Positions 2 through 10,211 of a DNA stretch of 10,211 bases are shown here, in pieces. The stretch covers positions 17,866-28,076 of the forward strand of contig DAOOON010000009.1 in the NCBI GenBank assembly GCA_035387745.1. Direction: 5' to 3'. The notes beneath the pieces are model-generated. The model saw nothing but the letters and a program-made list of their open reading frames with translations, ran no database searches and was not told the origin of the DNA. Position numbers and translations under genes: made by a program. The stretch's first letter is position 1; every line of letters begins with the position of its first letter. The stretch comes from an archaeon (lineage in GTDB: Archaea > Iainarchaeota > Iainarchaeia > Iainarchaeales > CSSED10-239).

Positions 2-1750
2 GGCACAACAATTGAATTAGACGAAATTAGCAAAATAAATAATCAATTAGACGATCTTGATAAACTATTAAAAGGGACAACATCAATATCCACTAGCACA
101 GCCGCAATAACCACGGATGATCAGCTGAAAATTGTTAATTCTTTAAAACAAACAAATCAAGGTATTGATGACGGTATAAAACAAATAGATGACGCAATCA
201 ATATTACAAACCCATCTGATACTGCAAAATTAGATACGTTAAAAGCCAATAGAGAAAGCTTACTTAAAGCAAAAGAAGGGCTATCTGAAATTAGTGATGA
301 CGTTTCTAAATTAAAACCAAACGGAGCAGGGAGTATAGAGGTTTCTTCCGAATTACAAAACAAAATAAATAATGTATCTCTTATTGATGATCAGATTAAA
401 GGTGTAAATTCGGCCTTATCTTCAATAGTCACTGGATCAAAATCAACTATGAGTTCCGCACAATTAGCAAATACGATTTCCGGTTTAGAAAAATCATCAG
501 CAAGTGCTGCAAAGCAATTGGCTATGTTAGATACCCAAATAGCGAATATGGAAAAAAGTAAAAACATAGTAACAATAGGCGCAAGAAATAAATATTTAGA
601 AAAATTAAAAGATCAAAGAGCTGGTCTTCAACAGGCTATAGAAAAATACAAAACTGCTGCTAATGAATTGGCAAGCGCACAAGATGATTTAGCAAAAACC
701 GGAAAAGGGGCCATAGAAGTATCCGATGACGTAATAAATAAAATAGATGATGCTTCAGGACTAGTTGCTGCCCAGAAGTTGCCTTCAAAATTAAGAAGGA
801 TATCAACAGGTCTACTAAAAATGGGGGTAGATATGGTTATAGTTGGAATTTCAAATGCTGCAGGGAAAGAATATTTAAATCGTCTTTCAAACGAGAACGG
901 ACAATTAGCAAATTTAGTTTATCAAGGAATTCCAGTTACTGAATTTGAAAAGAATGTGTGGTATAAAGTAACAGTAATAAAAAATTCAGACCGTTATAAT
1001 ATAATGATTGAAAAAGAAATACCGGCAATAAGTAATGATATAGTAATATATTATACAGATAATAAAGAAATTAAAGACATACAGACTTTAGAGCATCAAG
1101 ATGAATTATTACAAAATAATACACCGCAAGTACAATCACAAGATTGGTCAGAACTAAAAGAAGAGAAAGACAGAATTGATGCAACTCAAATTGCAACAAA
1201 TATTGAAGATTTACAAATGAGAATGTATTCTGAACACGAAACAAAATTAAAAGATTATGCAAGCTGTACATTTAGTAGTAGTGGCACTGTGTGTGTTGAT
1301 ATTAAGCCATTAACTCCAAACATGTGTGCTGCATTTGTTACAGGAGCATCTAGTAAGCTATATGGCGCAAACTATGTTGCAGGAAATGCTTGTGATTCTG
1401 GTACTGGCGCAAATCAAAATTATGGAACAAGAAACAGAATTGTTTGGCAAAAAGGAGAAGATAGTACAAGTTCATTAGATAATGTATTAGTGCCTGGTGT
1501 AGTAATAGGCATAGAAGGCACAAGTAACGTTCTTAAAAATTGTCAACCACCACATGTTGTTTTATATGTTGGTAAAAACGAATATGGTCAACACATGATA
1601 TTACAACAAAATGGAAGTAAAGGAAAATTAAGTCCTTTATTATCTGCAGATGGTGGCGCCTATCCTATGGAGAAAATATTTTTCATAGTTGTTCCAAAAA
1701 GTGGTTATGCAACTTATGATAATTTTGCAATAAATAATAATTTATCATAA
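2..1750 (+). CDS. 5'-truncated coiled-coil protein with a C-terminal NlpC/P60- or CHAP-like cysteine peptidase domain (putative extracellular cell-wall hydrolase)
   Basis: Frame 2 is open from nt 2 to TAA at 1748-1750. The track ORF begins at the first in-frame ATG (449). However, 149 stop-free codons lie upstream of it in AT-rich DNA, and they translate to the same heptad-like K/D/E/L/I/N-rich sequence. A ~24-aa motif (G-x-G-x-IEVS-x-x-x-x-NKI) occurs both upstream (323-394) and downstream (701-775) of that ATG. The gene therefore continues off the left edge. Confidence 0.85.
   Translation, partial: GTTIELDEISKINNQLDDLDKLLKGTTSISTSTAAITTDDQLKIVNSLKQTNQGIDDGIKQIDDAINITNPSDTAKLDTLKANRESLLKAKEGLSEISDDVSKLKPNGAGSIEVSSELQNKINNVSLIDDQIKGVNSALSSIVTGSKSTMSSAQLANTISGLEKSSASAAKQLAMLDTQIANMEKSKNIVTIGARNKYLEKLKDQRAGLQQAIEKYKTAANELASAQDDLAKTGKGAIEVSDDVINKIDDASGLVAAQKLPSKLRRISTGLLKMGVDMVIVGISNAAGKEYLNRLSNENGQLANLVYQGIPVTEFEKNVWYKVTVIKNSDRYNIMIEKEIPAISNDIVIYYTDNKEIKDIQTLEHQDELLQNNTPQVQSQDWSELKEEKDRIDATQIATNIEDLQMRMYSEHETKLKDYASCTFSSSGTVCVDIKPLTPNMCAAFVTGASSKLYGANYVAGNACDSGTGANQNYGTRNRIVWQKGEDSTSSLDNVLVPGVVIGIEGTSNVLKNCQPPHVVLYVGKNEYGQHMILQQNGSKGKLSPLLSADGGAYPMEKIFFIVVPKSGYATYDNFAINNNLS
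323..394 (+). repeat. Intragenic protein-level repeat, copy 1 (GAGSIEVSSELQNKINNVSLIDDQ)
   Basis: Manual translation of frame 2. It matches copy 2 at 701-775 in the G-x-G-x-IEVS...NKI...Q pattern. Confidence 0.6.
701..775 (+). repeat. Intragenic protein-level repeat, copy 2 (GKGAIEVSDDVINKIDDASGLVAAQ)
   Basis: Manual translation of frame 2. It matches copy 1 at 323-394. Confidence 0.6.
1262..1708 (+). other. Putative NlpC/P60- or CHAP-like papain-fold peptidase domain of gene 1
   Basis: The motif order resembles NlpC/P60 enzymes such as E. coli MepS/Spr (DCSGFV ... PGDLVLF ... HVGIYIG ... VHA). Here NMCAAFV carries a Cys at 1325-1327, LVPGVVIGIEG follows, PPHVVLYVG carries a His at 1553-1555, and GQHMILQ carries a second His at 1592-1594, 13 residues after the first. 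The domain has 5 Cys, an odd number that would allow one free catalytic thiol plus two disulfides. Confidence 0.5.
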
Positions 1751-1799: not shown

Positions 1800-1889
1800 A
1801 TGAATAAAAAAGGCTTTACATTATTTACAGCACTGATCTCTTTGTTATTAGTATCTGTAGCCTTGTCTTTAATTTTTAATATGATTAAT
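1800..1889 (+). other. Class III (prepilin-type) signal peptide or N-terminal hydrophobic pilin helix of gene 2
   Basis: K-K-G precedes F-T-L and an uninterrupted ~22-residue hydrophobic stretch. This fits the archaeal prepilin pattern [KR][GA]|[hydrophobic]. It also fits the bacterial G|FTL pattern, except that position +5 is Thr rather than Glu. There is no AxA-type Sec cleavage site. A plain signal anchor is the alternative. Confidence 0.55.
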
Positions 1890-3590
1890 ACAGAAGACAC
1901 GTATCTCTCTCTTATTCAAGATCAATCGTCAATGTCTGATCTTATGACTATTGCTGATCTTGCAAGAGCTGATGCATTTAATACTTTCATAATAACTCTT
2001 AGATCCAATTGGGAAGAGCACATGTCTAGAAATCATATGCTAGTAACTAGAGACCAAATGGATATGAATTGGGATGATTTTACACAATGGTTTATAAAAG
2101 ACAATTTTTTTGAAAGAGCATTTCCTGCATACTTTGCTCAAGGTATACTTTTTAATCTTAAATATAAAATGGAGCCACCAGGATATGATATAAGAACAGA
2201 AACAAACACCGGCACAAAAATAGTTTGTACCGAAAATTGTGAATATGGAGCACCAAATTGTAATTGTGAAATTCAAGCAACTGACCCTGATAGCGATACA
2301 AACAATTTATTTATTGATGTAGTTGTTGATATTTTTAAAGCAGGAGGAGAGAAAGCAGATATTATTGATTGTAATCAAACCGATACCAACTGTAATGGCT
2401 CTTTCTTTTTAACATTAGACACTACTCAGCTTGCAGATGAAAACTATGAATTGTTGCCGATAGTAACTGTTTTAAGAACTAAAAGTAATCAAGTAATACA
2501 AAGACCAGTATTAAGCAGACAGATTTATAAGATATATATGCCATGGCGTGGTCTTCAAGCATTAAGAACTGCAAGAAATATTGTTTTAGATAATGATACA
2601 GAAGAAAATGAAAATCCTGCAACACACGAGAATGTTGGTTTTTTCTCTCCAACAATTCACAACACCCTAGAGCAGGCAAGGCTTGGTTTTTGTGATCCAG
2701 GAACCTGCGTTCCAAGAAATAATTTCTTTATCACGCCAAATAAAATAGGAGTAGGGAACAGTTTTTGCCATACTATTCCCAAAACTTTAACGGCATCGGT
2801 GCCTTCTAATTTACTTTCAATATCACAAGTAAAAAATCTTCCTACAACATATGATTCTACAGAAAACATTAAAGATGGCTTTCTAAAACTTTATGGTCAA
2901 TCGCTTCTAGGAAATTTGAGCCAAAAAAGAAACGGCCAAACAATTACTTACAATAATGGATTAATAATGGATGGCCTCATAACTCCAATAGCTCCAGATG
3001 TTAATATTTTTGAATTTGTATTAGACGTTAGTTCAAAAAGAAGTAAAAAATATGTTACTACTGTTGCAAGTAATTTTGACGACGATTATGGTGCATTCAA
3101 CTTTGATGCATTAAGCAAAATGCCTTCTCTTGTAGGCGGCTTAGGTCTATTCTTAAAAGATAACAAATCCTCGCTAATCTGGCAAGTTAATAAACCTTGG
3201 TACGATAATCAAGCAAGCTTAAATTTGCCCGCAGATAACTCACAATATTCTGGCATTTTTAATTGCTCTGAAATAAATAATGCAACAACAGTTCTGCAAT
3301 TTATAGAAACAGATCCAAGATATAGAATAAAAGAATCTTATAAAGGCGTTAATACAAATATTAAAATACATTTACGTGAAGATTTTAGTGAGTTTTATTT
3401 TACTCCGGACAATAATTGGTCAAATCTGAAGCTTATAATAAATGATAATGGTTATTTAGATCCAAATTCTGCAAATTCTTTTGGTGACACCACAATTGAT
3501 GAAATCGGCTCAGGAATACAACCATGGGTTTGTTACAGCCAAGTCGATAGTGACAGTTCAGCCCCAAATTGTGGCCCAAAGAAATCATAA
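1800..3590 (+). CDS. Large Cys-rich secreted protein with a type IV pilin-like (class III signal peptide) N-terminus; candidate minor or tip pilin, or pilus-associated adhesin
   Basis: This is a complete 596-codon ORF running from ATG 1800 to TAA 3588-3590. The N-terminus is MNKKG|FTLFTALISLLLVSVALSLIF. The mature part is polar and N/D/T-rich and contains exactly 12 Cys in local clusters (CTENCEYGAPNCNC, DCNQTDTNC, FCDPGTC, VCYSQVDSDSSAPNC). Confidence 0.9.
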   Translation: MNKKGFTLFTALISLLLVSVALSLIFNMINTEDTYLSLIQDQSSMSDLMTIADLARADAFNTFIITLRSNWEEHMSRNHMLVTRDQMDMNWDDFTQWFIKDNFFERAFPAYFAQGILFNLKYKMEPPGYDIRTETNTGTKIVCTENCEYGAPNCNCEIQATDPDSDTNNLFIDVVVDIFKAGGEKADIIDCNQTDTNCNGSFFLTLDTTQLADENYELLPIVTVLRTKSNQVIQRPVLSRQIYKIYMPWRGLQALRTARNIVLDNDTEENENPATHENVGFFSPTIHNTLEQARLGFCDPGTCVPRNNFFITPNKIGVGNSFCHTIPKTLTASVPSNLLSISQVKNLPTTYDSTENIKDGFLKLYGQSLLGNLSQKRNGQTITYNNGLIMDGLITPIAPDVNIFEFVLDVSSKRSKKYVTTVASNFDDDYGAFNFDALSKMPSLVGGLGLFLKDNKSSLIWQVNKPWYDNQASLNLPADNSQYSGIFNCSEINNATTVLQFIETDPRYRIKESYKGVNTNIKIHLREDFSEFYFTPDNNWSNLKLIINDNGYLDPNSANSFGDTTIDEIGSGIQPWVCYSQVDSDSSAPNCGPKKS

Positions 3591-3716: not shown

Positions 3717-3727
3717 CTGAAATAAAA

Positions 3728-3733
3728 GAAGGT
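3728..3733 (+). promoter_or_regulatory. Shine-Dalgarno-like GAAGGT upstream of the giant gene
   Basis: It partially matches AGGAGGT and ends 8 nt before ATG 3742. Confidence 0.35.
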
Positions 3734-3741
3734 TTTCAAAA

Positions 3742-6700
3742 ATGGGATTAAAAGAATTCTACTATAAATTAGAAGATAAATATTTTGCAATGCTTGATAA
3801 TCTGGAGGAAAAGGGAATTAATTTATACAAATTAGTTGATCCTCTAGAAAAAAATGGAATACCAACATTCCCTATTTTTATAATTCTTATTCTTGCAATA
3901 ATCGGTTTGATAATTTTCTTATTACTTCCTGTTTTTGGAATAACAGGTGGACCGCACGGAACTGCTGTTCAATTTGTAAATGAAACAAATGATCCAATTT
4001 CTGATATAACCTTAAAAGTAAAATTAAATGGCCAGTCTAAAACAATAGAAACAGATTCTGAAGGTTATTTTTATTTTAAAGATTTAAGTAAAGATTCAAC
4101 TTATGTTTTAAAATTAGCAGACGATAAATATCTATTCTCAGATAGAGAAGAATATACAATTGATCCAAAAAAGGAATCACTAGTAGTTCATTTAAAAGAA
4201 GGCGCATTTTCAACCACAAAAACAATTTTATTTAAAACACAATCAGGAGAAGCAGTAACTTCTGAATTAAATGTAGAATTTAGTTGTCTTGGAACAGACT
4301 ATGAAAAAACAGTAATAGTTAAAGGTGGATCTCACACATTAGACGATATACCAACAGATTGTGGCAGTTTAACAGTAGATGTAAAAAACAGAAGTGATTA
4401 TGAAACAAAGATTCCTGCGGATGGAACAAGTGGGGAAATAATATTTAGTAGTTCTGTAAACTACGCAACATTATCGGTAACAATAAAAGATAAAGACAAA
4501 GGAATAATTCTACCCGGCATGTCAGTATCAATATATGATTTAACAGGGATAAAGGTTGATAGTGGACCAACAAATGCAAATGGTATTTTTTCAACAGAGT
4601 TAGTTCAAGTTTCAAAGACCTATAGAATATTAGTTTCTGATGATACAAAAAAAATTTATTCTGGAATAAACGATCAAGATTATGCAAATAATATTCAAAC
4701 ACCAGTAACAATAACTACAGGGATAAACACTAAATCATTAGAAATAAAACAAGATGTTGTTGGGTTTATAAAAGTAAAAGTAAAAAACGATTCTGGATTA
4801 TATCTAGAAGGCGTTTCTGTAAAATTATCAAAAGGCAGTTCTACAATTGATATTAAAACTACTGATTCTACGGGGGTTGTAGAGTTTGGAGTAAAAGAGA
4901 ATGTAACTTATGTTTTGTCCTTTGATAAAGAAGGTTATTTTGTTTACACAAACAGAAATGCAACAGTTTCTGAAAGTACAACAGAGGTCACTTTAAGGAG
5001 TATGACTGAAGAAACAAAAACCAGTTTATTGATTAGCGTAACCGATACAGAATTAAATCCTTTAGAATATGCGACTGTAAAAATATGGGATGCATTAAAT
5101 AATACAGTTGTTAAAATTGTAACTACAGATGTAACAGGCAGAGTAATTATTTCAAATTTAAGTGTGGAAACAACTTATTTAGCAGAAGCAATAGTTGGTC
5201 CATTTACTGGTAGAACAAATAATTTTGTAGTAGAGGAAAGAGAAGAGACGTCTGTTCCAATTTTAGTTTCAATTGGTTATGGCACTTATAATTTAACAAT
5301 ATTAAATTCAGATGGCAATCCTATTTCAAATGCAACAATAAAAGCATATGATGCAAGCACAAATAAAGAAATGACAGAAAAGCAAACAACCACTAACGAA
5401 ACAGGTCTTGCAATATTACCAATTAGAGCAGATAAAGAAGTATATTTTGCTATAGTCACAGCAGACGGCACAATAATTACAAAAAGATATTCTGTAGATG
5501 CAGAAAATGTAACAAACGATACAATAGTCATTCCTTCTAATGTTTCAAGCTCTGCAAGTCTGGAGTTTGTTGGCTATTTTTCCGCAAATGGAGAACAGTT
5601 GCCAGCAGTTAGTGCTGGTCAATCCGCAACAGCAAGATTTTTATTAAATGTTAATAAAAAATACTCAAAAGTTCTAGCACACATAAGAACAGGAGAAGGA
5701 GAAACTTGTGGTAACAGAACATATTCAATAACTGAAGATTCTATATATATTAAACAAATAAAATTTGCAGGAAATAAAATCATTGGTTCAATTGATTATA
5801 CACCATGTAATGGAGAATCAAAAGATACTGCTTCAATAGTCCGAAAAGATGCTAAATGGTTTAATGTTATTTTAGATAACCCAATAGAAGGGTCTTATAT
5901 TATTGATGCAGACATTGTAGTTACAGATACAGCAACAACCGATCAATCCATATTTTATAGAGCAGAATATCAACAAGGTTCTGCAATATTAAGAAATCCA
6001 AAAGACGATGTTATTGGAACAAGCCTAACTTCTCCAAATAGACAGGCACTTTATGCATATGCAAATAAGAAAATCATTTCAGTAGGTGATTCATCCAGTT
6101 GTGAAAACGGAATATGCTATGCTTTTACTATCAAAGACAAATCTACAGGTGCAGAAAAAAGAATAATGGACAAGTTTACAGCAAAAGAAGGAACAGATTA
6201 TCAACTTAATTTTAGATTAAGTTTTGAAAGACCTGCGACAGATGCAATTTTAGTGGTTTCACCAACAGGCCAAACAATAGTATTAAACGAATATGATATA
6301 ACTTCTGGTGGCAGTCTACCAATAACAGACACTGATTTTTCAAATATTAGTTTAGGAAATATAAATGCGAACGGCACAGTAAATGGTTCAATTGATTTAA
6401 GTGTAATTAATGACGTAACAGACGAATTGACCTTTAATATTTATGCAAATAGCGACAGCGTATTCTCAAAGATAATACACTTTGATCTTAAGCCTTCAAA
6501 AAAAATGATTGTTGATGTTGTTCCAAAAACAATGGTTCCATTTGTGCCTAATGTTATTTCTGTAGGAGTAACAGAAGAATCTGGCACAAAAATTTCTGAT
6601 GCAACAGTTTTTATAAGAATAAACGGAAAGACTATAGCAAATGGTAAAACCGACAGAGACGGTTTATATTCAGTAATGTTACCATCCACAGATATAAAAG

Positions 6701-9700
6701 ACGAAGTAGAATTTACAGTTAAAAAACAAAATTATAGTGGAGTTACAATAAAGCAAATAGTTTCTGAAAATCTAGTTGTTGCAACACCAGAGAAATTAGA
6801 TATACAATTAGATATTTCTAAAGGTTATTCTCAAGATTCTGGTTTGATATTAGTGAATAATTCAGTTTTACCATTAACAATTATTGGTTTAGAAACAAAC
6901 ATAAGGTCAGATTATGTTTCTATAAAAAGTGGCGCACAAGGCACAATTTTAGAACCCTCATTCCAGCAACAAATAAATATTTCAACTAAATTAACAGAGA
7001 AAGGAATAGATTTAATGGCTCAAAAAGTTATAGAAGGAGATCTTCTAATTAGCGTTAGTGAAGCAAGTCTTGCAAAAGTTTGGGTTATTAAAGTTCCAAT
7101 AAAAGTAAGAATTACTTTTGGGAATTCTGTAGACAACGTAGACTGTTTAGAAATTAATCCTCAAGAAACAACAATAAGAGTTGAAAATTCAAACGATATA
7201 GAATATAATCTTAAAATTAAAAATAATTGTACAGTAGATGATGAGCCAGTAGATATTGGCAGAATTTATGCAGAATCAGACTATAAGAACACAAAGAAAT
7301 TAGGAGATTATTTTGTAGTGGTTTCTGGTAAAGAACAAAAATTATCACTTGATGAAAAAGTGGAAGTTGCAAATAAAATTGTAGCAGAAGAAACCGCAAC
7401 CATAAAATTAATCTTTAGACCAAACAAGTCTGCAAAAAGTGGATTATCAAATCCAATAATCACATTCTCATCAAATAGGCCAAATGTAAATGGTATAGAT
7501 GTAATAGAGTCACAGCATTTACCAAGCATAATATTAAACAATTATGTTAGTTGTATAGAAACACCAAGCTCTCCAATTACAATTCCATATTGTATGGGTT
7601 ATGGTTATAATCTATATGCTGGTGGAACAAACACAATGAATTTTAATCCATTTTTAATGGGCCAATATAATTATCAATATGCTGGCCAAGCACCACAATC
7701 AATGAATCAAAGTTGGTTAACTGGTTCAACTTATCCAACTAGTATGATGGGATATCAAAGTGTATTGGGAACAGGAGTCCCATATACAAATTATAGAGAA
7801 AATACCCCTGCAGGATATCAAGGTGCTCAAGGCTTTTCATCATCTGGAATGTTTGGTTGTGAGAAAGCGCAAATACAAATTAGAAACAATTGTTCAGAAG
7901 AATTAAGTTTACAATTTAGTACTCTTGGTGGAGTAATAATTACAGATCCTGAAAATTCAGAAATGGCATTAAAAAAAGGCGCAAGTGGAATGTTAGGTGT
8001 ACAGGGCTCACAAGTTCTTGGACAATACAAGATAGCAGTAAATGCAAAGCCAGACGATGATGCTATAGAAGAATACACTTATGTAAAAGACATAGTTGTT
8101 TCAGTAAATAGACCAGTTAGTATTTTGCCTGAAAATTGTATAAGCGTAGTTCCTACAGAATTTGATTTCTCTGGAATAGATACAACAGAAAAGAAACTAA
8201 TGGTAATCAATACCTGTTATGACATGGGCTATGCATTATTAGGTTTAAGTGTCTTAAATGAAGATCAATTAATTGTTGGAGAGGTTCAATATTTCTCTAT
8301 TGGAGATGTAAATGCAAATCTTAAGCCAAAGAAAACATATAGATATGTAGACGGTAAAACCACAGAAATAATGACCATCAAAATTAGAAGAAATCCTGAT
8401 ATTACAGAAAAAACATTAAGACTTGATAGCGAAGATAATAATTCTATTGCTAAGAAACTAACCGCACTAAGAAAAGATTATTATGATGTTGGCAAGTCCG
8501 TAAATTTAACAGCATTACTTGGAATTACTTATTCTAATCCAAGATTAGGAAATGATGAAATGGAAGCAGAGATTACTTTAACAGATAAGCTTCAATGGTT
8601 AAGTTATATAGATAGCTTTGCAGACACCAGTTCTGCTCTTGAAGGTCAAACACCACCAACAGATTCCACAGATACAACGACCGGGGCACAAGTACCATCA
8701 TTTACAGAATACTTCGCAGGTAGCGAGGCTCTAAATCCTGGCGAGTGTTATGATCCAAAAGGATTTAAGAAACAAGGATTCACTGGAGAAGATAATTTTA
8801 AAAAATATGGTTTTAACAGATTATTATTTACATATAATGATACAGATATAACTCATAATATATGTGATTATGGAAGAGTCTATTGTGATCAAGATCAATT
8901 AAGAATTGCCATATCTAAAAAAGCAGATATGCAAGGTGCAAATAAAACCTATCTATTAGATGGAACATATTTCTTACTTGAAGGAAATAAGATTGCAGCA
9001 AATCCTTATTTCTTTGATGAAGATGAAAATCCATTAGATAAGGCCGCAATAGAAAGCATAGTTTCAAGTCAAACATTTAATAATCGCGACCCAAATTCAA
9101 TATTACAGGCTTTAAAAGCAGTATTAAATAGAGTGCCTGCAGATTTAAGAAAATTTACAATACTTGAAGCAAAGATTGGTCCAATAACTACAAGCGAACC
9201 AACACCAGTAAATCTTTCAGCAGATAACATAAAAGCGTATATGACCATATTTGGAGATAATGACTTTACAAAGAACGTAAAGCAAGACGGAGACGTCTAT
9301 CAAATAACTGTTGATTCTTTCTTAAGAAGTGAAGGAAAATTAGAAGAGAAGATTAATAGCGCTTCAACTTCTTTACAAGAGCAAGCAATTATTGCTGAGT
9401 TCTTGAATCAATATCTAAATACAATGCAGTTATATTATGGTGACACAATAAGTCCATTTATTATTAATGCAAAGACATACGGTGCATTAAATTCAGGAAA
9501 TACGAAATCAATATTTGGTGCTGTTCAGTTCATGAGTGGAGCATGGAATTTAACTTTAGATTCAACGTCTCCAGTAAAAGAGGTTGCAACTCCAGGAACA
9601 TACAGCATTGCATTTAAGAATTCTTCAACTAATAAACAATTAACTTATACTGTTCAAAAAATAACTTCTAATTTATTAGATTATTATAATAATAATCCAG

Positions 9701-10211
9701 ATTATAAGACAAACACCTTCTTTACAAATCCAACAAACGCTTATTATTTCCATTATTTCGGGGTGCCTTTTAAGACCGCAAATACCGGGCAATCAAAAGC
9801 AACAGTTATTATTAATAACTACAACAACGGTTGGGATAAAGTACAAGATGGTATTATATTAAATGTTCCAAAAGACAACGCAGCAATATCTTTTAAAGAT
9901 ATAAGACCATTACAGGTTTTATCTTCTGGGGCATATAAGATAGAATATATAGCAAATGGCAAATATTCTTCAAAAGACACTTCAGAATTAAAAAATACTT
10001 TGTTTATTTTCCAAAAAATAAATGAAACAACAAAAGGTGCAGACTATCAATTAAAGACCTCTTCAAACTTAGATATGAAATTTAATATTGTTCCGACAAC
10101 ACTAAGTGCTACAAAGAACTTTACGCACGTTTATGGAGTACTAAAAGACATAACTAGTTCAAGTAATTTTACAGCTGAAGAAACAAGTTCAGTAAAGATA
10201 ATGGTTGATGG
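3742..10211 (+). CDS. Giant N-terminally membrane-anchored multi-domain surface (adhesin-like) protein, 3'-truncated by the window (at least 2,156 aa)
   Basis: In-frame TGA at 3718-3720 is followed by the first ATG at 3742. I then read frame 1 without any stop to nt 10211. The translation is protein-like throughout, with one TM helix, repeated beta-sandwich-type modules and paired cysteines. It is absent from the ORF track, presumably because no stop lies inside the window. Confidence 0.9.
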   Translation, partial: MGLKEFYYKLEDKYFAMLDNLEEKGINLYKLVDPLEKNGIPTFPIFIILILAIIGLIIFLLLPVFGITGGPHGTAVQFVNETNDPISDITLKVKLNGQSKTIETDSEGYFYFKDLSKDSTYVLKLADDKYLFSDREEYTIDPKKESLVVHLKEGAFSTTKTILFKTQSGEAVTSELNVEFSCLGTDYEKTVIVKGGSHTLDDIPTDCGSLTVDVKNRSDYETKIPADGTSGEIIFSSSVNYATLSVTIKDKDKGIILPGMSVSIYDLTGIKVDSGPTNANGIFSTELVQVSKTYRILVSDDTKKIYSGINDQDYANNIQTPVTITTGINTKSLEIKQDVVGFIKVKVKNDSGLYLEGVSVKLSKGSSTIDIKTTDSTGVVEFGVKENVTYVLSFDKEGYFVYTNRNATVSESTTEVTLRSMTEETKTSLLISVTDTELNPLEYATVKIWDALNNTVVKIVTTDVTGRVIISNLSVETTYLAEAIVGPFTGRTNNFVVEEREETSVPILVSIGYGTYNLTILNSDGNPISNATIKAYDASTNKEMTEKQTTTNETGLAILPIRADKEVYFAIVTADGTIITKRYSVDAENVTNDTIVIPSNVSSSASLEFVGYFSANGEQLPAVSAGQSATARFLLNVNKKYSKVLAHIRTGEGETCGNRTYSITEDSIYIKQIKFAGNKIIGSIDYTPCNGESKDTASIVRKDAKWFNVILDNPIEGSYIIDADIVVTDTATTDQSIFYRAEYQQGSAILRNPKDDVIGTSLTSPNRQALYAYANKKIISVGDSSSCENGICYAFTIKDKSTGAEKRIMDKFTAKEGTDYQLNFRLSFERPATDAILVVSPTGQTIVLNEYDITSGGSLPITDTDFSNISLGNINANGTVNGSIDLSVINDVTDELTFNIYANSDSVFSKIIHFDLKPSKKMIVDVVPKTMVPFVPNVISVGVTEESGTKISDATVFIRINGKTIANGKTDRDGLYSVMLPSTDIKDEVEFTVKKQNYSGVTIKQIVSENLVVATPEKLDIQLDISKGYSQDSGLILVNNSVLPLTIIGLETNIRSDYVSIKSGAQGTILEPSFQQQINISTKLTEKGIDLMAQKVIEGDLLISVSEASLAKVWVIKVPIKVRITFGNSVDNVDCLEINPQETTIRVENSNDIEYNLKIKNNCTVDDEPVDIGRIYAESDYKNTKKLGDYFVVVSGKEQKLSLDEKVEVANKIVAEETATIKLIFRPNKSAKSGLSNPIITFSSNRPNVNGIDVIESQHLPSIILNNYVSCIETPSSPITIPYCMGYGYNLYAGGTNTMNFNPFLMGQYNYQYAGQAPQSMNQSWLTGSTYPTSMMGYQSVLGTGVPYTNYRENTPAGYQGAQGFSSSGMFGCEKAQIQIRNNCSEELSLQFSTLGGVIITDPENSEMALKKGASGMLGVQGSQVLGQYKIAVNAKPDDDAIEEYTYVKDIVVSVNRPVSILPENCISVVPTEFDFSGIDTTEKKLMVINTCYDMGYALLGLSVLNEDQLIVGEVQYFSIGDVNANLKPKKTYRYVDGKTTEIMTIKIRRNPDITEKTLRLDSEDNNSIAKKLTALRKDYYDVGKSVNLTALLGITYSNPRLGNDEMEAEITLTDKLQWLSYIDSFADTSSALEGQTPPTDSTDTTTGAQVPSFTEYFAGSEALNPGECYDPKGFKKQGFTGEDNFKKYGFNRLLFTYNDTDITHNICDYGRVYCDQDQLRIAISKKADMQGANKTYLLDGTYFLLEGNKIAANPYFFDEDENPLDKAAIESIVSSQTFNNRDPNSILQALKAVLNRVPADLRKFTILEAKIGPITTSEPTPVNLSADNIKAYMTIFGDNDFTKNVKQDGDVYQITVDSFLRSEGKLEEKINSASTSLQEQAIIAEFLNQYLNTMQLYYGDTISPFIINAKTYGALNSGNTKSIFGAVQFMSGAWNLTLDSTSPVKEVATPGTYSIAFKNSSTNKQLTYTVQKITSNLLDYYNNNPDYKTNTFFTNPTNAYYFHYFGVPFKTANTGQSKATVIINNYNNGWDKVQDGIILNVPKDNAAISFKDIRPLQVLSSGAYKIEYIANGKYSSKDTSELKNTLFIFQKINETTKGADYQLKTSSNLDMKFNIVPTTLSATKNFTHVYGVLKDITSSSNFTAEETSSVKIMVD
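3862..3939 (+). other. Single transmembrane signal-anchor helix of the giant protein (aa 41-66, PTFPIFIILILAIIGLIIFLLLPVFG)
   Basis: A 26-residue uncharged hydrophobic stretch follows a 40-aa charged leader (MGLKEFYYKLEDKYFAMLDNLEEKGINLYKLVDPLEKNGI). The leader carries several Lys, which fits an N-in, C-out topology. Confidence 0.75.
3961..5535 (+). repeat. Tandem array of six divergent ~80-95-aa carboxypeptidase-regulatory-like (CarboxypepD_reg / Ig-like beta-sandwich) domains (protein-level repeats)
   Basis: A core pattern recurs: [hydrophobic-x]n ... T(T)D-x-x-G ... hydrophobic ... x-Y-x-[hydrophobic]. Examples are TDSEGYFYFKDLSKDSTYVLKL, TTDSTGVVEFGVKENVTYVLSF, TTDVTGRVIISNLSVETTYLAEA and TTNETGLAILPIRADKEVYFAIV. 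Approximate units are 3961-4197, 4204-4461, 4462-4749, 4753-5001, 5017-5271 and 5281-5535. The DNA copies are not identical. Confidence 0.6.
6499..6762 (+). repeat. Seventh, isolated CarboxypepD_reg-like domain in the giant protein
   Basis: ISVGVTEESGTKISDATVFIRINGKTIANGKTDRDGLYSVMLPSTDIKDEVEFTV shows the same pattern as the 3961-5535 array. Confidence 0.5.
7591..7860 (+). other. Cys-bracketed, nearly uncharged G/Y/Q/N/M-rich low-complexity island (90 aa) in the giant protein
   Basis: My manual count of the 90 residues from Cys (7591-7593) to Cys (7858-7860) gives 15 Gly, 11 Tyr, 8 Gln, 8 Asn and 7 Met. There is only one Arg and one Glu, and no Lys, Asp, His or Ile. The flanking sequence is rich in K/E/D/I. 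Confidence 0.8.

Follow-up and report, generated by a model that had tools for sequence, protein, structure and literature searches.

The locus raises the question of why a giant, charge-rich surface protein carries a 90-residue island that is nearly devoid of charge, and what such an island may do. The window analysed here, a 10,211-nucleotide stretch of archaeal DNA, encodes the island on its forward strand (frame 1) as residues 1284–1373 of a giant open reading frame (CMGYGYNLYAGGTNTMNFNPFLMGQYNYQYAGQAPQSMNQSWLTGSTYPTSMMGYQSVLGTGVPYTNYRENTPAGYQGAQGFSSSGMFGC; Table 1). The translation contains 15 Gly, 11 Tyr, 8 Gln, 8 Asn, 7 Met, 8 Thr and 8 Ser residues. One Arg and one Glu are the only charged residues, Lys, Asp, Ile and His are absent, and Cys occupies the first and last positions. 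The counts given in a preliminary description of the DNA are thereby reproduced exactly; that description also called the island the sharpest compositional discontinuity in the window. The latter claim is borne out by a KL divergence of 0.745, versus 0.33 for the next segment, which makes the island the strongest 90-residue compositional outlier of the protein. The remainder of the protein is 22.4% charged, so that the probability of finding at most two charged residues in 90 is 4.6e-8 (~ 1e-4 over all such segments), and 500 shuffles of the protein yielded a minimum charged count of 4 (mean minimum 9.7) compared with 2 in the island.

The island is a case of compositional bias, not of repetition. 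The low-complexity likeness proposed earlier holds with respect to the strong bias, but the Shannon entropy is only mildly low (3.65 bits versus 3.86 elsewhere) and repeats are lacking: Gly (16.7%) follows no periodic motif, and no tandem repeats were found in the island DNA, which led us to discard an origin by tandem-repeat slippage in this lineage. Sixteen aromatic residues are distributed along the island with gaps of 2–12 residues. The Met-richness is lineage-specific (7.8% in the island versus 2.2% pooled over the family). Asn and Gln together account for 16 of the 90 residues (17.8%), Pro for 5.6%, and Asn, Gln, Ser and Thr combined for 36%. Compared by cosine similarity of composition, the island scores 0.79 with Sup35N and 0.83 with the low-complexity region of FUS; Sup35N contains 45% Gln and Asn. 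A classical Q/N-rich prion-like domain requires a core of at least 60 residues strongly enriched in Gln and Asn; no such core was found, and Gly and Tyr dominate instead. With only 18% Asn and Gln, the island is thus nearer to a Tyr/Gly sticker-and-spacer segment of the FUS kind than to a classical prion domain, and of the earlier "prion-like or FUS-type" designation it is the second half that fits better.

Table 1 Features of the giant surface-protein gene and of the island (coordinates in nucleotides of the window).
Feature	Coordinates	Strand	Basis or remarks
Giant surface-protein gene	3742..10209, continuing past window end	+	Open frame, Pfam, relatives
N-terminal hydrophobic segment IPTFPIFIILILAIIGLIIFLLLPVFGI, presumed membrane anchor	3859..3942	+	Read from translation
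Reference Cys...NxC pair of preceding Ig-like domain CLEINPQETTIRVENSNDIEYNLKIKNNC, insert-free	7144..7230	+	Spacing 28 residues
Host Ig-like β-sandwich domain, outer Cys to last strand	7552..8109	+	AF2 strands, Foldseek
Outer Cys, N-terminal partner (SCIETP...), C1271	7552..7554	+	Invariant C148 in A1; starts 58/58 extracted segments
Island: 90-residue G/Y/Q/N/M/S/T-rich near-uncharged loop, predicted disordered	7591..7860	+	Composition, AF2, family conservation, dN/dS
Inner Cys, N-terminal partner (PYC), C1284	7591..7593	+	Co-occurrence with C-terminal inner Cys
Motif 1 equivalent (GYGYNLY)	7597..7617	+	A2 alignment, shuffles
Motif 2 (FNPF)	7642..7653	+	A2 alignment, shuffles
Motif 3 equivalent (VPYTNY)	7777..7794	+	A2 alignment, shuffles
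Inner Cys, C-terminal partner (FGC), C1373	7858..7860	+	Co-occurrence with N-terminal inner Cys
Outer Cys, C-terminal partner (IRNNC), C1384	7891..7893	+	N259, C261 invariant in A1
Reference Cys...NxC pair of following Ig-like domain CISVVPTEFDFSGIDTTEKKLMVINTC, insert-free	8137..8217	+	Spacing 26 residues

The island lies within a single reading frame that is open from nucleotide 3721 (first ATG at 3742) to the window end at 10209. A frameshift or wrong-frame artefact was rejected because stop codons occur in all five other frames across the island and dS is far above dN there. Relatives with ~ 87% identity are present in L001, L003 and L004, of which the full-length one in L003 comprises 2,448 amino acids; the island sits mid-chain, roughly half-way along a protein of ~ 2,450 residues. 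The Pfam search identified CarboxypepD_reg domains (PF13620, 92.4 bits against a cut-off of 32.3, six stretches) and MG4 (41.1 bits), and detected no RNA-binding domains in the host protein. The three-domain region that contains the island and the C-terminal ~ 1,000 residues matched nothing in Pfam or NCBIfam. Pfam likewise returned nothing for the island alone, and neither the C-terminal half nor the isolated island had a meaningful sequence match in the PDB. The family members that were looked up are either unnamed or annotated only as "hypothetical protein". The N-terminal hydrophobic segment is presumed to be a membrane anchor preceded by a Lys-rich cytoplasmic head; because the positive-inside rule applied to this head would place the remaining chain outside the cell, the CarboxypepD_reg and Ig-like domains that follow the anchor are presumably extracellular. 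L003, L005 and L006 retain a class-III/pilin-like neighbour and the syntenic group of giant surface-protein genes. This cluster encodes the upstream giant protein, a pilin-like protein of ~ 600 amino acids, giant proteins of ~ 1,610 and ~ 2,500 amino acids and a protein of ~ 965 amino acids. No partner loop of similar composition was found elsewhere in the gene cluster, so that a heterotypic match is lacking there; the loci contain no tRNAs, and their accessible flanks no marker genes. The C-terminus of an upstream ORF (449–1750) resembled by eye an NlpC/P60 Cys-His peptidase, an assignment that Pfam, NCBIfam and the PDB did not support.

The position of the island with respect to the domain architecture was derived from three consecutive Ig-like domains, each of which carries a Cys...NxC pair. 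In alignment A1 the residues of this pair are invariant in the preceding (C12, N38 and C40) and following (C343, N367 and C369) domains as well as in the host domain. Because the sister domains hold the pair at 28 and 26 residues whereas the spacing in the island domain is 113, the island is an insertion of ~ 86–88 residues within one Ig-like domain, located in the A′–B hairpin and nested within the invariant outer Cys pair. The AlphaFold2 (AF2) model of the preceding domain places strands A, A′ and B at the reference pair with pLDDT above 90. In the host domain, a strand at model residues 156–159 (ITIP) precedes the island and strands within residues 252–333 follow it (pLDDT 88–95), such that strands occur directly before residue 161 and after residue 250. 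The earlier proposal of a loop displayed between β-sandwich modules is thereby modified: the loop is displayed from a β-sandwich architecture, but from the A′–B hairpin inside a single module. Among the matches that Foldseek listed from the PDB, only generic Ig/ASH/PapD-like folds were seen for the flanking domains, including generic fold-level matches to RbmA, CfaB and PapD-like proteins. The best 50 matches listed comprise ciliary ASH-domain proteins, pilins, macroglobulins, integrins and similar Ig-like proteins, with no fusogen among them.

This geometry bears on whether the island is a membrane-active loop, in which a disulfide-stabilised hairpin tip rich in aromatic residues, Gly and Met would dip into a host membrane interface, as class II fusion loops do, and contribute to contact between symbiont and host membranes. 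A G-[YFW]-G-x-[YF]-G type motif adjoins the Cys at the hairpin tip, the uncharged loop offers many interfacial residues (Tyr, Trp, Met and Phe), and the archaeon may lead a host-dependent life. However, at ~ 88 amino acids the loop is 5–10 times longer than known fusion loops, it is very polar (36% Asn, Gln, Ser and Thr) and mid-chain, and the Foldseek matches listed include no fusogen-like fold. Assignment to the class II fusion proteins or fusexins was rejected on these grounds, and membrane activity is considered very unlikely.

Whether the island is kept in evolution was addressed with its homologues. A word-indexed homology search with residues 1020–2163 found no relatives, whereas an exhaustive search of representatives found 129; the empty result is a failure of index sensitivity and not an absence of relatives. 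A scan of viral contigs found no relatives, and a literature search found no description of the protein family or the loop. The comparison set consisted of 57 homologues from clusters at ≤ 50% identity, mostly 1,800–3,050 amino acids long, and 58 segments were extracted. All 57 homologues carry an insert at the island position, with a core of 38–177 amino acids (median 90). The pooled inserts of the 58 members are rich in Gly (16.3%), Tyr (14.8%), Asn (10.3%), Ser (9.6%), Pro (8.2%) and Gln (7.2%), with Asn and Gln together at 17.5%, and depleted in Lys (0.4%), Glu (1.1%), Ile (1.4%) and Val (1.5%). With the exception of three short anchored motifs, the insert sequences cannot be aligned across the family; some homologues contain regular GYGG-type repeats. 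The check proposed in the preliminary description, which was whether orthologues retain the composition or show an ordinary one, thus turned out in favour of retention. To judge from these sequences, selection keeps the composition of the insert, its three anchored motifs and its putative Cys staple, but not the sequence and length of the middle. The preserved composition consists of aromatic "stickers" every 2–12 residues within a Gly/Ser/Asn/Gln/Pro "spacer" from which Lys, Glu, Ile and Val are nearly excluded.

Comparison with L003 and L004 yielded dN/dS ratios of 0.18–0.20 for the island and 0.09–0.13 for its flanks, and an island dN ~ 1.8 times that of the flanks. These values point to purifying selection on the island. 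A diversifying loop resembling a CDR or a DGR target was excluded, as the ratio of ~ 0.2 is not elevated to ~ 1. The elevated dN and the highly variable sequence and length are what would be expected of neutral expansion of a tolerated loop with drifted composition. This explanation is largely refuted and barely credible, given that every one of the 57 homologues holds an insert of at least 38 amino acids with the same strong bias, that dN/dS is 0.2, that the motifs are conserved in position and that the staple has been gained or lost in coordination ~ 10 times.

The last of these observations concerns the two inner cysteines. Both are present in 36 of the 58 sequences and both are absent in 22, while none has a single one when the shifted partner in P0058 is counted (Fisher's test, p ~ 2e-16). 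A neighbour-joining tree built from the flanking domains shows ~ 10 coordinated changes. Such strictly joint gain and loss of the two cysteines speaks for a disulfide staple, and the pair very probably closes the loop, as had been suggested from the terminal positions of the cysteines, by forming a disulfide at the neck of the insertion. On the accompanying question of whether orthologues conserve both residues, 36 sequences keep the pair and 22 lack it. Several of the matching metagenome contigs could originate from anoxic, reducing habitats, where disulfide formation would be less certain.

In the AF2 model of the window protein, pLDDT is 29–43 over model residues 165–247, whereas most of the flanking sequence scores ~ 90 or higher. 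The model of a distant homologue from a second subfamily (P0062) exhibits the same pattern, with pLDDT of 34–54 in the insert and 82–95 in the flanks. The insert is thus predicted to be intrinsically disordered, although the low values may be due in part to the shallow and poorly alignable sequence alignments (24–35 sequences). A confidently predicted globular domain, named in the preliminary description as the observation that would speak against it, was seen in neither subfamily model. The same shallowness, together with the richness in Gly and aromatic residues, the conserved anchor motifs and staple, and the GYGG-type repeats of some homologues, would leave room for a small folded module missed by AF2, such as a Tyr-stacked β-solenoid or a polyglycine-II sandwich like the receptor-binding domain of the phage gp38 adhesin. 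We regard this as improbable, since both independent predictions were confident for the flanks in the very runs that left the insert unfolded, core lengths of 38–177 amino acids are hard to reconcile with one fold, and the PDB and Pfam gave no match. The gp38-type sandwich in particular was discarded because the Gly of the window sequence is non-periodic at only 16.7%, without a regular motif or repeats at the protein or DNA level, and AF2 yields no fold.

The three anchored motifs are the only alignable parts of the insert. Motif 1 has the family consensus P-[YF]-N-[TL]-G-[YF]-G-x-Y and lies a constant number of residues from the outer Cys. Its strict form occurs in 37 of 58 sequences versus 3.6 in shuffles, and alignment A2 shows an invariant G38 with a nearly invariant P34 and Y42; the window's version fails the strict regular expression yet aligns at the same position. 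Motif 2, [FY]-[DNS]-P-[YF], occurs in 32/58 sequences (5.6 in shuffles) and contains the nearly invariant P59. Motif 3, [YF]-P-Y-S-N-[YF], occurs in 37/58 (13.5 in shuffles) with P106 nearly invariant, and is located ~ 37–38 residues before the last outer Cys, a distance to the C-terminal end that is conserved. Variation in insert length falls between the motifs. In the subfamily of the window protein, motifs 1 and 3 are present in degenerate versions. Conservation of the three motifs may point to a degree of specific structure or to a particular binding partner.

The motifs could also be read as a docking site of short linear motifs that bind a specific conserved partner, with the biased middle acting as a flexible tether of variable length. 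Candidates for the partner are a second protein encoded in the syntenic cluster, an adjacent domain of the same polypeptide and a component of a host surface. The fixed offsets of the motifs from the outer Cys, their 3- to 10-fold excess over shuffles with length varying between them, the conserved gene cluster and the dN/dS of 0.2 all speak for this model. Nevertheless, a mere tether needs neither the exclusion of Lys, Glu, Ile and Val nor 15% Tyr throughout in every lineage, the window's own subfamily has let two of the motifs degenerate, and AF2 docks the motifs onto the flanking domains without confidence. Motif-driven docking is possible but on balance unlikely.

Since the relatives keep the make-up of the island but not its sequence, it is probably a sticky contact patch. 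We infer from the composition and context that it may serve as a stapled, disordered loop of aromatic stickers for low-specificity adhesion or self-association, a function for which we consider the case evenly poised. The inner disulfide would turn the insert into a closed loop that is displayed without disturbing the sandwich, and this loop would provide a multivalent contact surface of low specificity through Tyr-mediated π and hydrogen-bond contacts. Such a surface could join adjacent protein molecules to one another at a set height over the membrane, or it could stick to a partner or to the envelope of a host cell; in both cases function would be carried by composition and valency rather than by a folded binding site. 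The mid-chain location, away from the distal tip, is not the obvious site of host contact. A further extension, in which a lawn of giant stalk proteins with one loop per molecule at a fixed height forms either a cohesive layer with gel- or condensate-like properties or a contact zone that wets membranes, is speculative and rather unlikely.

Self-association might alternatively proceed by conversion to cross-β structure, the island being a true prion-like or functional-amyloid segment that templates its neighbours into patches in the manner of Als/Flo nanodomains or curli. An uncharged, predicted disordered loop rich in Tyr/Phe, Asn, Gln and Gly, with the cosine similarities to Sup35N and FUS given above, has the appearance of such a segment, and Zajkowski et al. 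(bioRxiv 10.1101/2020.07.20.212902) report that archaeal candidate prion domains with high Tyr/Phe content formed amyloid experimentally. However, Asn and Gln at 17.8% here and 17.5% in the family are well under the level typical of classical Q/N-rich prion domains. Long β-strands are disfavoured by Pro (5.6% in the island, 8.2% in the family) and by Gly (16%), and a staple at the base would constrain the topology of the loop. An amyloid role is accordingly judged to be fairly improbable.

The sticker-loop reading, if correct, has consequences beyond this protein. The island is a defining feature of an unannotated family, mostly of 1,800–3,050 residues, within a conserved giant-surface-protein cluster of uncultivated archaea. 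To our knowledge, prokaryotes have few functional disordered regions, and those described are mostly intracellular. Should the loop mediate self-association or adhesion to a partner or host, it would offer a testable handle on surface building or attachment and would add the surface of archaeal cells to the places where sticker-and-spacer behaviour occurs. If a gel-like layer does form, the physics familiar from FG-nucleoporins and FUS-type domains would be at work outside a prokaryotic cell, and the layer would be a candidate for the molecular basis of cell–cell attachment in an archaeon that is possibly host-dependent. Even a merely tolerated loop would constitute a clean natural case of selection on composition and not on sequence.

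Archaeal candidate prion domains are among the closest known systems. The survey by Zajkowski et al. (bioRxiv 10.1101/2020.07.20.212902) reports that these are enriched in proteins with cell-wall and adhesion GO terms and that Tyr/Phe content set apart those forming amyloid; a search of that text finds no mention of the protein family described here. Given that prion-like segments of archaeal cell-wall and adhesion proteins have been surveyed there, the earlier statement that the island is unusual for a prokaryotic surface protein is too strong. Like those domains, the island is an uncharged stretch of an archaeal protein that is rich in Asn, Gln, Gly and Tyr. It differs from them and from the yeast Q/N-rich prion domains in its Asn and Gln content of only ~ 18%, its appreciable Pro and its staple-constrained loop.

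The resemblance to the FUS/FET domains consists of ~ 12% Tyr at every few residues in a Gly-rich polar background, near-zero charge with evenly spread aromatic residues, and disorder as predicted by AF2; in the island family it is the composition and not the sequence that is conserved. Unlike the FUS/FET domains, which are free tails of intracellular RNA-binding proteins, the island would be an extracellular Cys-stapled loop of ~ 90 amino acids in an Ig-like domain, and it contains more Asn, Met and Thr but less Ser and Gln than they do. The presumed extracellular location, the lack of RNA-binding domains and of a PDB sequence match indicate neither homology nor shared context with the FET family, and the resemblance is thus a functional analogy only. 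Microbial adhesins such as fungal Als/Flo, curli CsgA and Vibrio RbmA-type proteins are comparable in architecture, namely a surface-anchored Ig-like stalk with a segment that, in the present case, may self-associate. No sequence or family relationship connects them to the island, and their segments are short β-prone peptides or regular repeats rather than a 90-residue Tyr/Gly loop.

Camelid and shark CDR3 and the bovine ultralong CDR-H3 likewise present a Tyr/Gly/Ser/Asn-rich loop with an extra Cys pair on an Ig-like β-hairpin, and both they and the island vary greatly in sequence and length between lineages. The comparison is an analogy only: the island is much longer, predicted to be disordered and, at a dN/dS of 0.2, not under diversifying selection, and the window revealed no machinery for diversification. 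With the giant CarboxypepD_reg, Big_1 and MG-domain surface proteins of uncultivated archaea and bacteria, the host protein shares these Pfam domains, scored above threshold, behind a presumed N-terminal anchor, and differs in that the three-domain island region and the C-terminal ~ 1,000 residues are without a Pfam or NCBIfam match. The locus fits the structural class of an Ig-like domain with a hairpin-loop insertion, as confident strands flank the insert on both sides and the sister domains are insert-free.

Translation places the island, a 90-residue segment rich in Gly, Tyr, Gln, Asn and Met with cysteine as its first and last residue, in the frame of one very long ORF encoding a giant protein. 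The other five frames across it are full of stops. A recount gave 15 Gly, 11 Tyr, 8 Gln, 8 Asn, 7 Met, 8 Thr, 8 Ser, one Arg and one Glu, in exact agreement with the counts of the preliminary description, and Lys, Asp, Ile and His are absent. The giant protein outside the island is 22.4% charged and contains 9% Ile. Relative to this background, the probability that 90 residues include no more than two charged ones is 4.6e-8, and 500 shuffles of the giant protein gave a minimum of four charged residues in any window. No other 90-residue segment of the protein deviates in composition nearly as much as the island (KL 0.745 vs 0.33 for the second), which bears out the island's earlier designation as the sharpest compositional discontinuity. 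Its Shannon entropy is 3.65 bits, compared with 3.86 bits elsewhere, and no tandem repeats were found in its DNA; the segment is compositionally biased, not truly repetitive.

Features of the window and of related loci (window positions unless a locus is named)
Feature	Position	Strand	Remarks
C-terminal part of another giant protein	2-1750	+	ORF continues past the left window end
596-aa ORF	1800-3590	+	N-terminus MNKKGFTLFTALISLLLV; upstream of the giant ORF
Giant ORF	3721-10209	+	first ATG at 3742; runs past the window end
Hydrophobic segment	3859-3942	+	28 residues
Island	7591-7860	+	residues 1284-1373 of the giant ORF
83-aa ORF, GTG start	7827-8078	-	overlaps the island end, wholly within the giant gene's conserved coding frame; most likely spurious
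Thr/Pro/Asp-rich linker TPPTDSTDTTTGAQ	8650-8691	+	follows the Ig-like region; compare the L006 giant protein at ~aa 1602
C-terminal module	8700-10209	+	~500 residues; ~640-1130 of the exhaustive-search query 6778-10209
C-terminal extension of full-length relatives	L003:13400-14311		~290 residues beyond the window end
Upstream giant protein	L003:3-4946		>1,648 aa
KEPDPN repeats	L003:~18900-19082; L004:~18600-18737		contig edge
Conserved gene cluster	L003:1-19083; L005:1-26567; L006:1-20501		genes on one strand

In each of the three Ig-like domains at the island, strand A starts with an invariant Cys and strand B ends with an invariant Asn-x-Cys (C12/N38/C40, C148/N259/C261 and C343/N367/C369 in A1, the protein alignment of this region). 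The spacing of these cysteines is 28 and 26 residues in the neighbour domains and 113 in the island domain. An AlphaFold2 model of the window three-domain region, calculated with a 35-sequence alignment, has pLDDT values of ~90 or more over most of both flanking domains, with lower values (67-83) confined to its C-terminal end, and places one strand (ITIP) directly before the island and strand B (KAQIQIRN) directly after it. The Cys spacing and the strands on either side thus identify the island as an ~86-residue insertion in place of the A'-B hairpin turn of one domain. The normal Cys pair of the domain encloses the insertion, whose own terminal cysteines (PYC ... FGC) sit exactly at the neck. 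The structural idea of the preliminary description was largely right, except that the island lies within one β-sandwich module and not between modules. The 50 top Foldseek matches listed for the flanks are generic Ig/ASH/PapD-like sandwiches (such as hydin-type ciliary proteins, CEP192, the CfaB pilin, RbmA and macroglobulins).

A word-indexed protein search with window positions 6778-10209 as query gave no match; none of its 8,000 word-sharing candidates reached E <= 0.001, despite the presence in the collection of relatives up to 69% identical, and for proteins of this kind such a negative does not amount to absence. An exhaustive search of 1.84 billion cluster representatives yielded 129 relatives, of which 105 had E values below 1e-10. 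Extraction of the three-domain region succeeded for 57 relatives, mostly of 1,800-3,050 aa plus a few shorter fragments, and all 57 carry a similarly biased insert at the island position, with a core of 38-177 aa (median 90). The pooled inserts contain 16.3% Gly, 14.8% Tyr, 10.3% Asn, 9.6% Ser, 8.2% Pro and 7.2% Gln, and are low in Lys (0.4%), Glu (1.1%), Ile (1.4%) and Val (1.5%); the flanks of the same proteins contain 2.1% Tyr, 7.2% Lys and 8.2% Glu. Met enrichment is peculiar to the window lineage (7.8% vs 2.2%). The island is real, non-random and conserved by composition.

The middle of the insert is unalignable, but three short motifs recur at constant offsets. P-[YF]-N-[TL]-G-[YF]-G-x-Y, located 15 residues past the outer Cys, occurs in 37 of 58 sequences vs 3.6 in shuffles, [FY]-[DNS]-P-[YF] in 32 of 58 vs 5.6, and [YF]-P-x3-[YF], ~37-38 residues ahead of the last Cys, in 37 of 58 vs 13.5. 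The window equivalents are GYGYNLY, FNPF and VPYTNY. The likeliest rival explanation, which holds a clear minority of our confidence, is that motifs in the insert form a docking site and the remainder is a passive tether.

The insert is predicted to be disordered. Its pLDDT is 29-43 in the window protein (model residues 165-247) and 34-54 in the distant homologue P0062, where the rest of the domain scores 82-95 in a model from a separate 24-sequence alignment; the alignments behind both models are shallow and poorly alignable. Neither model gives the insert the confident globular fold that would have contradicted the preliminary description. That AlphaFold2 missed a small fold, the third rival in rank, is doubtful in view of the wide range of insert lengths.

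Compared with L003 and L004, metagenome loci encoding ~87% identical homologues, the island has a dN/dS of 0.18-0.20 (dN 0.11, dS 0.54-0.64) and the flanks one of 0.09-0.13 (dN 0.06). The island is therefore under purifying selection and evolves ~1.8 times faster than the scaffold. The same ratio rules out a diversifying, CDR-like loop. Selection retains a closed loop, dense Tyr/aromatics and Gly/Ser/Asn/Gln/Pro spacers, and it rigorously excludes charge and β-branched aliphatic residues; the sequence and length of the insert middle are free to drift.

The two terminal cysteines of the insert are both present in 35 sequences, and also in P0058, a homologue in which an extra insertion displaces the N-terminal partner. 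Both are absent from 22 sequences, and none has a Cys at one end only (Fisher's test, p ~2e-16). These flanking cysteines, whose conservation the preliminary description had raised, thus always occur together but are not universal. A neighbour-joining tree of the flanking domains requires a minimum of about 10 coordinated gains or losses. This comparative evidence argues strongly that the two cysteines work as a pair, and the obvious reading is that they would form a disulfide staple at the loop base. Neutral loop expansion, the least likely rival, is essentially excluded by the composition bias, the dN/dS, the motifs and the Cys coordination.

The giant protein begins with a Lys-rich N-terminus and a single hydrophobic segment, followed by many β-sandwich modules. 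Pfam matches are CarboxypepD_reg (92.4 bits in six stretches) and MG4 (41.1 bits); Big_1 and bMG3, at 33.9 and 32.5 bits, fall slightly below their 34.9-bit cut-offs. The protein is probably a membrane-anchored stalk that would expose the loop outside the cell. The full-length counterpart in L003 is 2,448 aa. Since full-length relatives extend past the window end, the window protein is cut by the window and not by a stop codon; their extension has one stretch rich in Ser/Thr and one rich in Ala/Ile (AIAIAIATA), together with a coiled-coil-like segment and short β-repeats. Where the window has its Thr/Pro/Asp-rich linker, the homologue P0002 (48% identical) has a long (GT)n/GQ repeat, and the linker looks like a second, variable low-complexity hinge. 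Many shorter proteins without the island region (870-1,425 aa; P0010-P0017 and others) share the separate, conserved C-terminal module, for which Pfam offers no match and which may be a 'head' domain.

Very large genes, at least five or six of them, form the conserved cluster to which the gene belongs. Their order is a giant protein, a ~600-aa pilin-like protein, the ~2,200-2,450-aa island protein, then a ~1,610-aa giant paralogue and a ~965-aa protein, with a further giant protein at the end. L002 has the same sequence as the window, and the more distant L005 and L006 keep the same gene order. The 596-aa ORF, which directly precedes the island-bearing gene in L003, L004, L005 and L006, has no Pfam domain and a weak NCBIfam ComGF match (E 0.0014); its N-terminal sequence resembles a class-III signal (type IV pilin/archaeal pilin-like) that lacks Glu at +5. 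The last ~150 residues of the upstream giant protein show a Cys ... PPHVVLYVGKNEYGQH pattern. An NlpC/P60-type Cys-His peptidase, suspected there by eye, was unsupported by Pfam, NCBIfam and PDB sequence searches. The ~1,610-aa paralogue has the same N-terminal anchor style without the island, and no island-like segment was found in other proteins of the cluster. The downstream paralogue ends in perfect KEPDPN hexapeptide tandem repeats, which match Pfam Trypan_PARP by composition only. The cluster may encode a surface or attachment apparatus, and a DPANN-type lifestyle is plausible for the uncultivated source archaeon, whose G+C content is low (~31%).

Aromatic residues are spread evenly along the island, with gaps of 2-12 residues. 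FUS-type and FG-type domains display sticker-and-spacer behaviour. By analogy, a kept composition with a drifting sequence would be the signature of a function in composition and valency. We consider the chances about even that the island is a disordered, disulfide-stapled sticky loop for multivalent, low-specificity contacts. Such adhesive contacts would either join adjacent stalk-protein copies to one another, at a set height above the membrane, or hold a partner or host envelope. It is rather unlikely that the loops build, outside the cell, a layer that is cohesive or condensate-like, or else a membrane-wetting contact zone. A membrane-active loop, the fourth rival, is very unlikely.

Searches of Pfam, NCBIfam, the PDB and the literature found no description of the loop-in-Ig-domain architecture, of a covarying staple nested within an invariant disulfide, of the anchored insert motifs, or of such a loop as the defining feature of an unannotated giant-protein family in a conserved cluster. 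The second rival, a genuine amyloid or prion-like element, is improbable given an N+Q content of just 18%, Pro contents of 5.6% in the island and 8.2% in the pooled family inserts, and the topology of a stapled loop. Of the prion-like or FUS likeness first proposed, the low-complexity-domain-like character stands, but the N+Q content is below that of classical Q/N-rich prion domains. Archaeal candidate prion domains have been surveyed; they are enriched among proteins with GO terms for cell wall and adhesion, and the amyloid formers stood out by their Y/F content (10.1101/2020.07.20.212902). Prion-like patches on archaeal surface proteins thus have precedents of their kind, and to call the island unusual for a prokaryotic surface protein is too strong. 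By its lack of homology, its extracellular context and its Q/N content the island stands outside the FUS-type and prion-like families, but it would act like their low-complexity domains.
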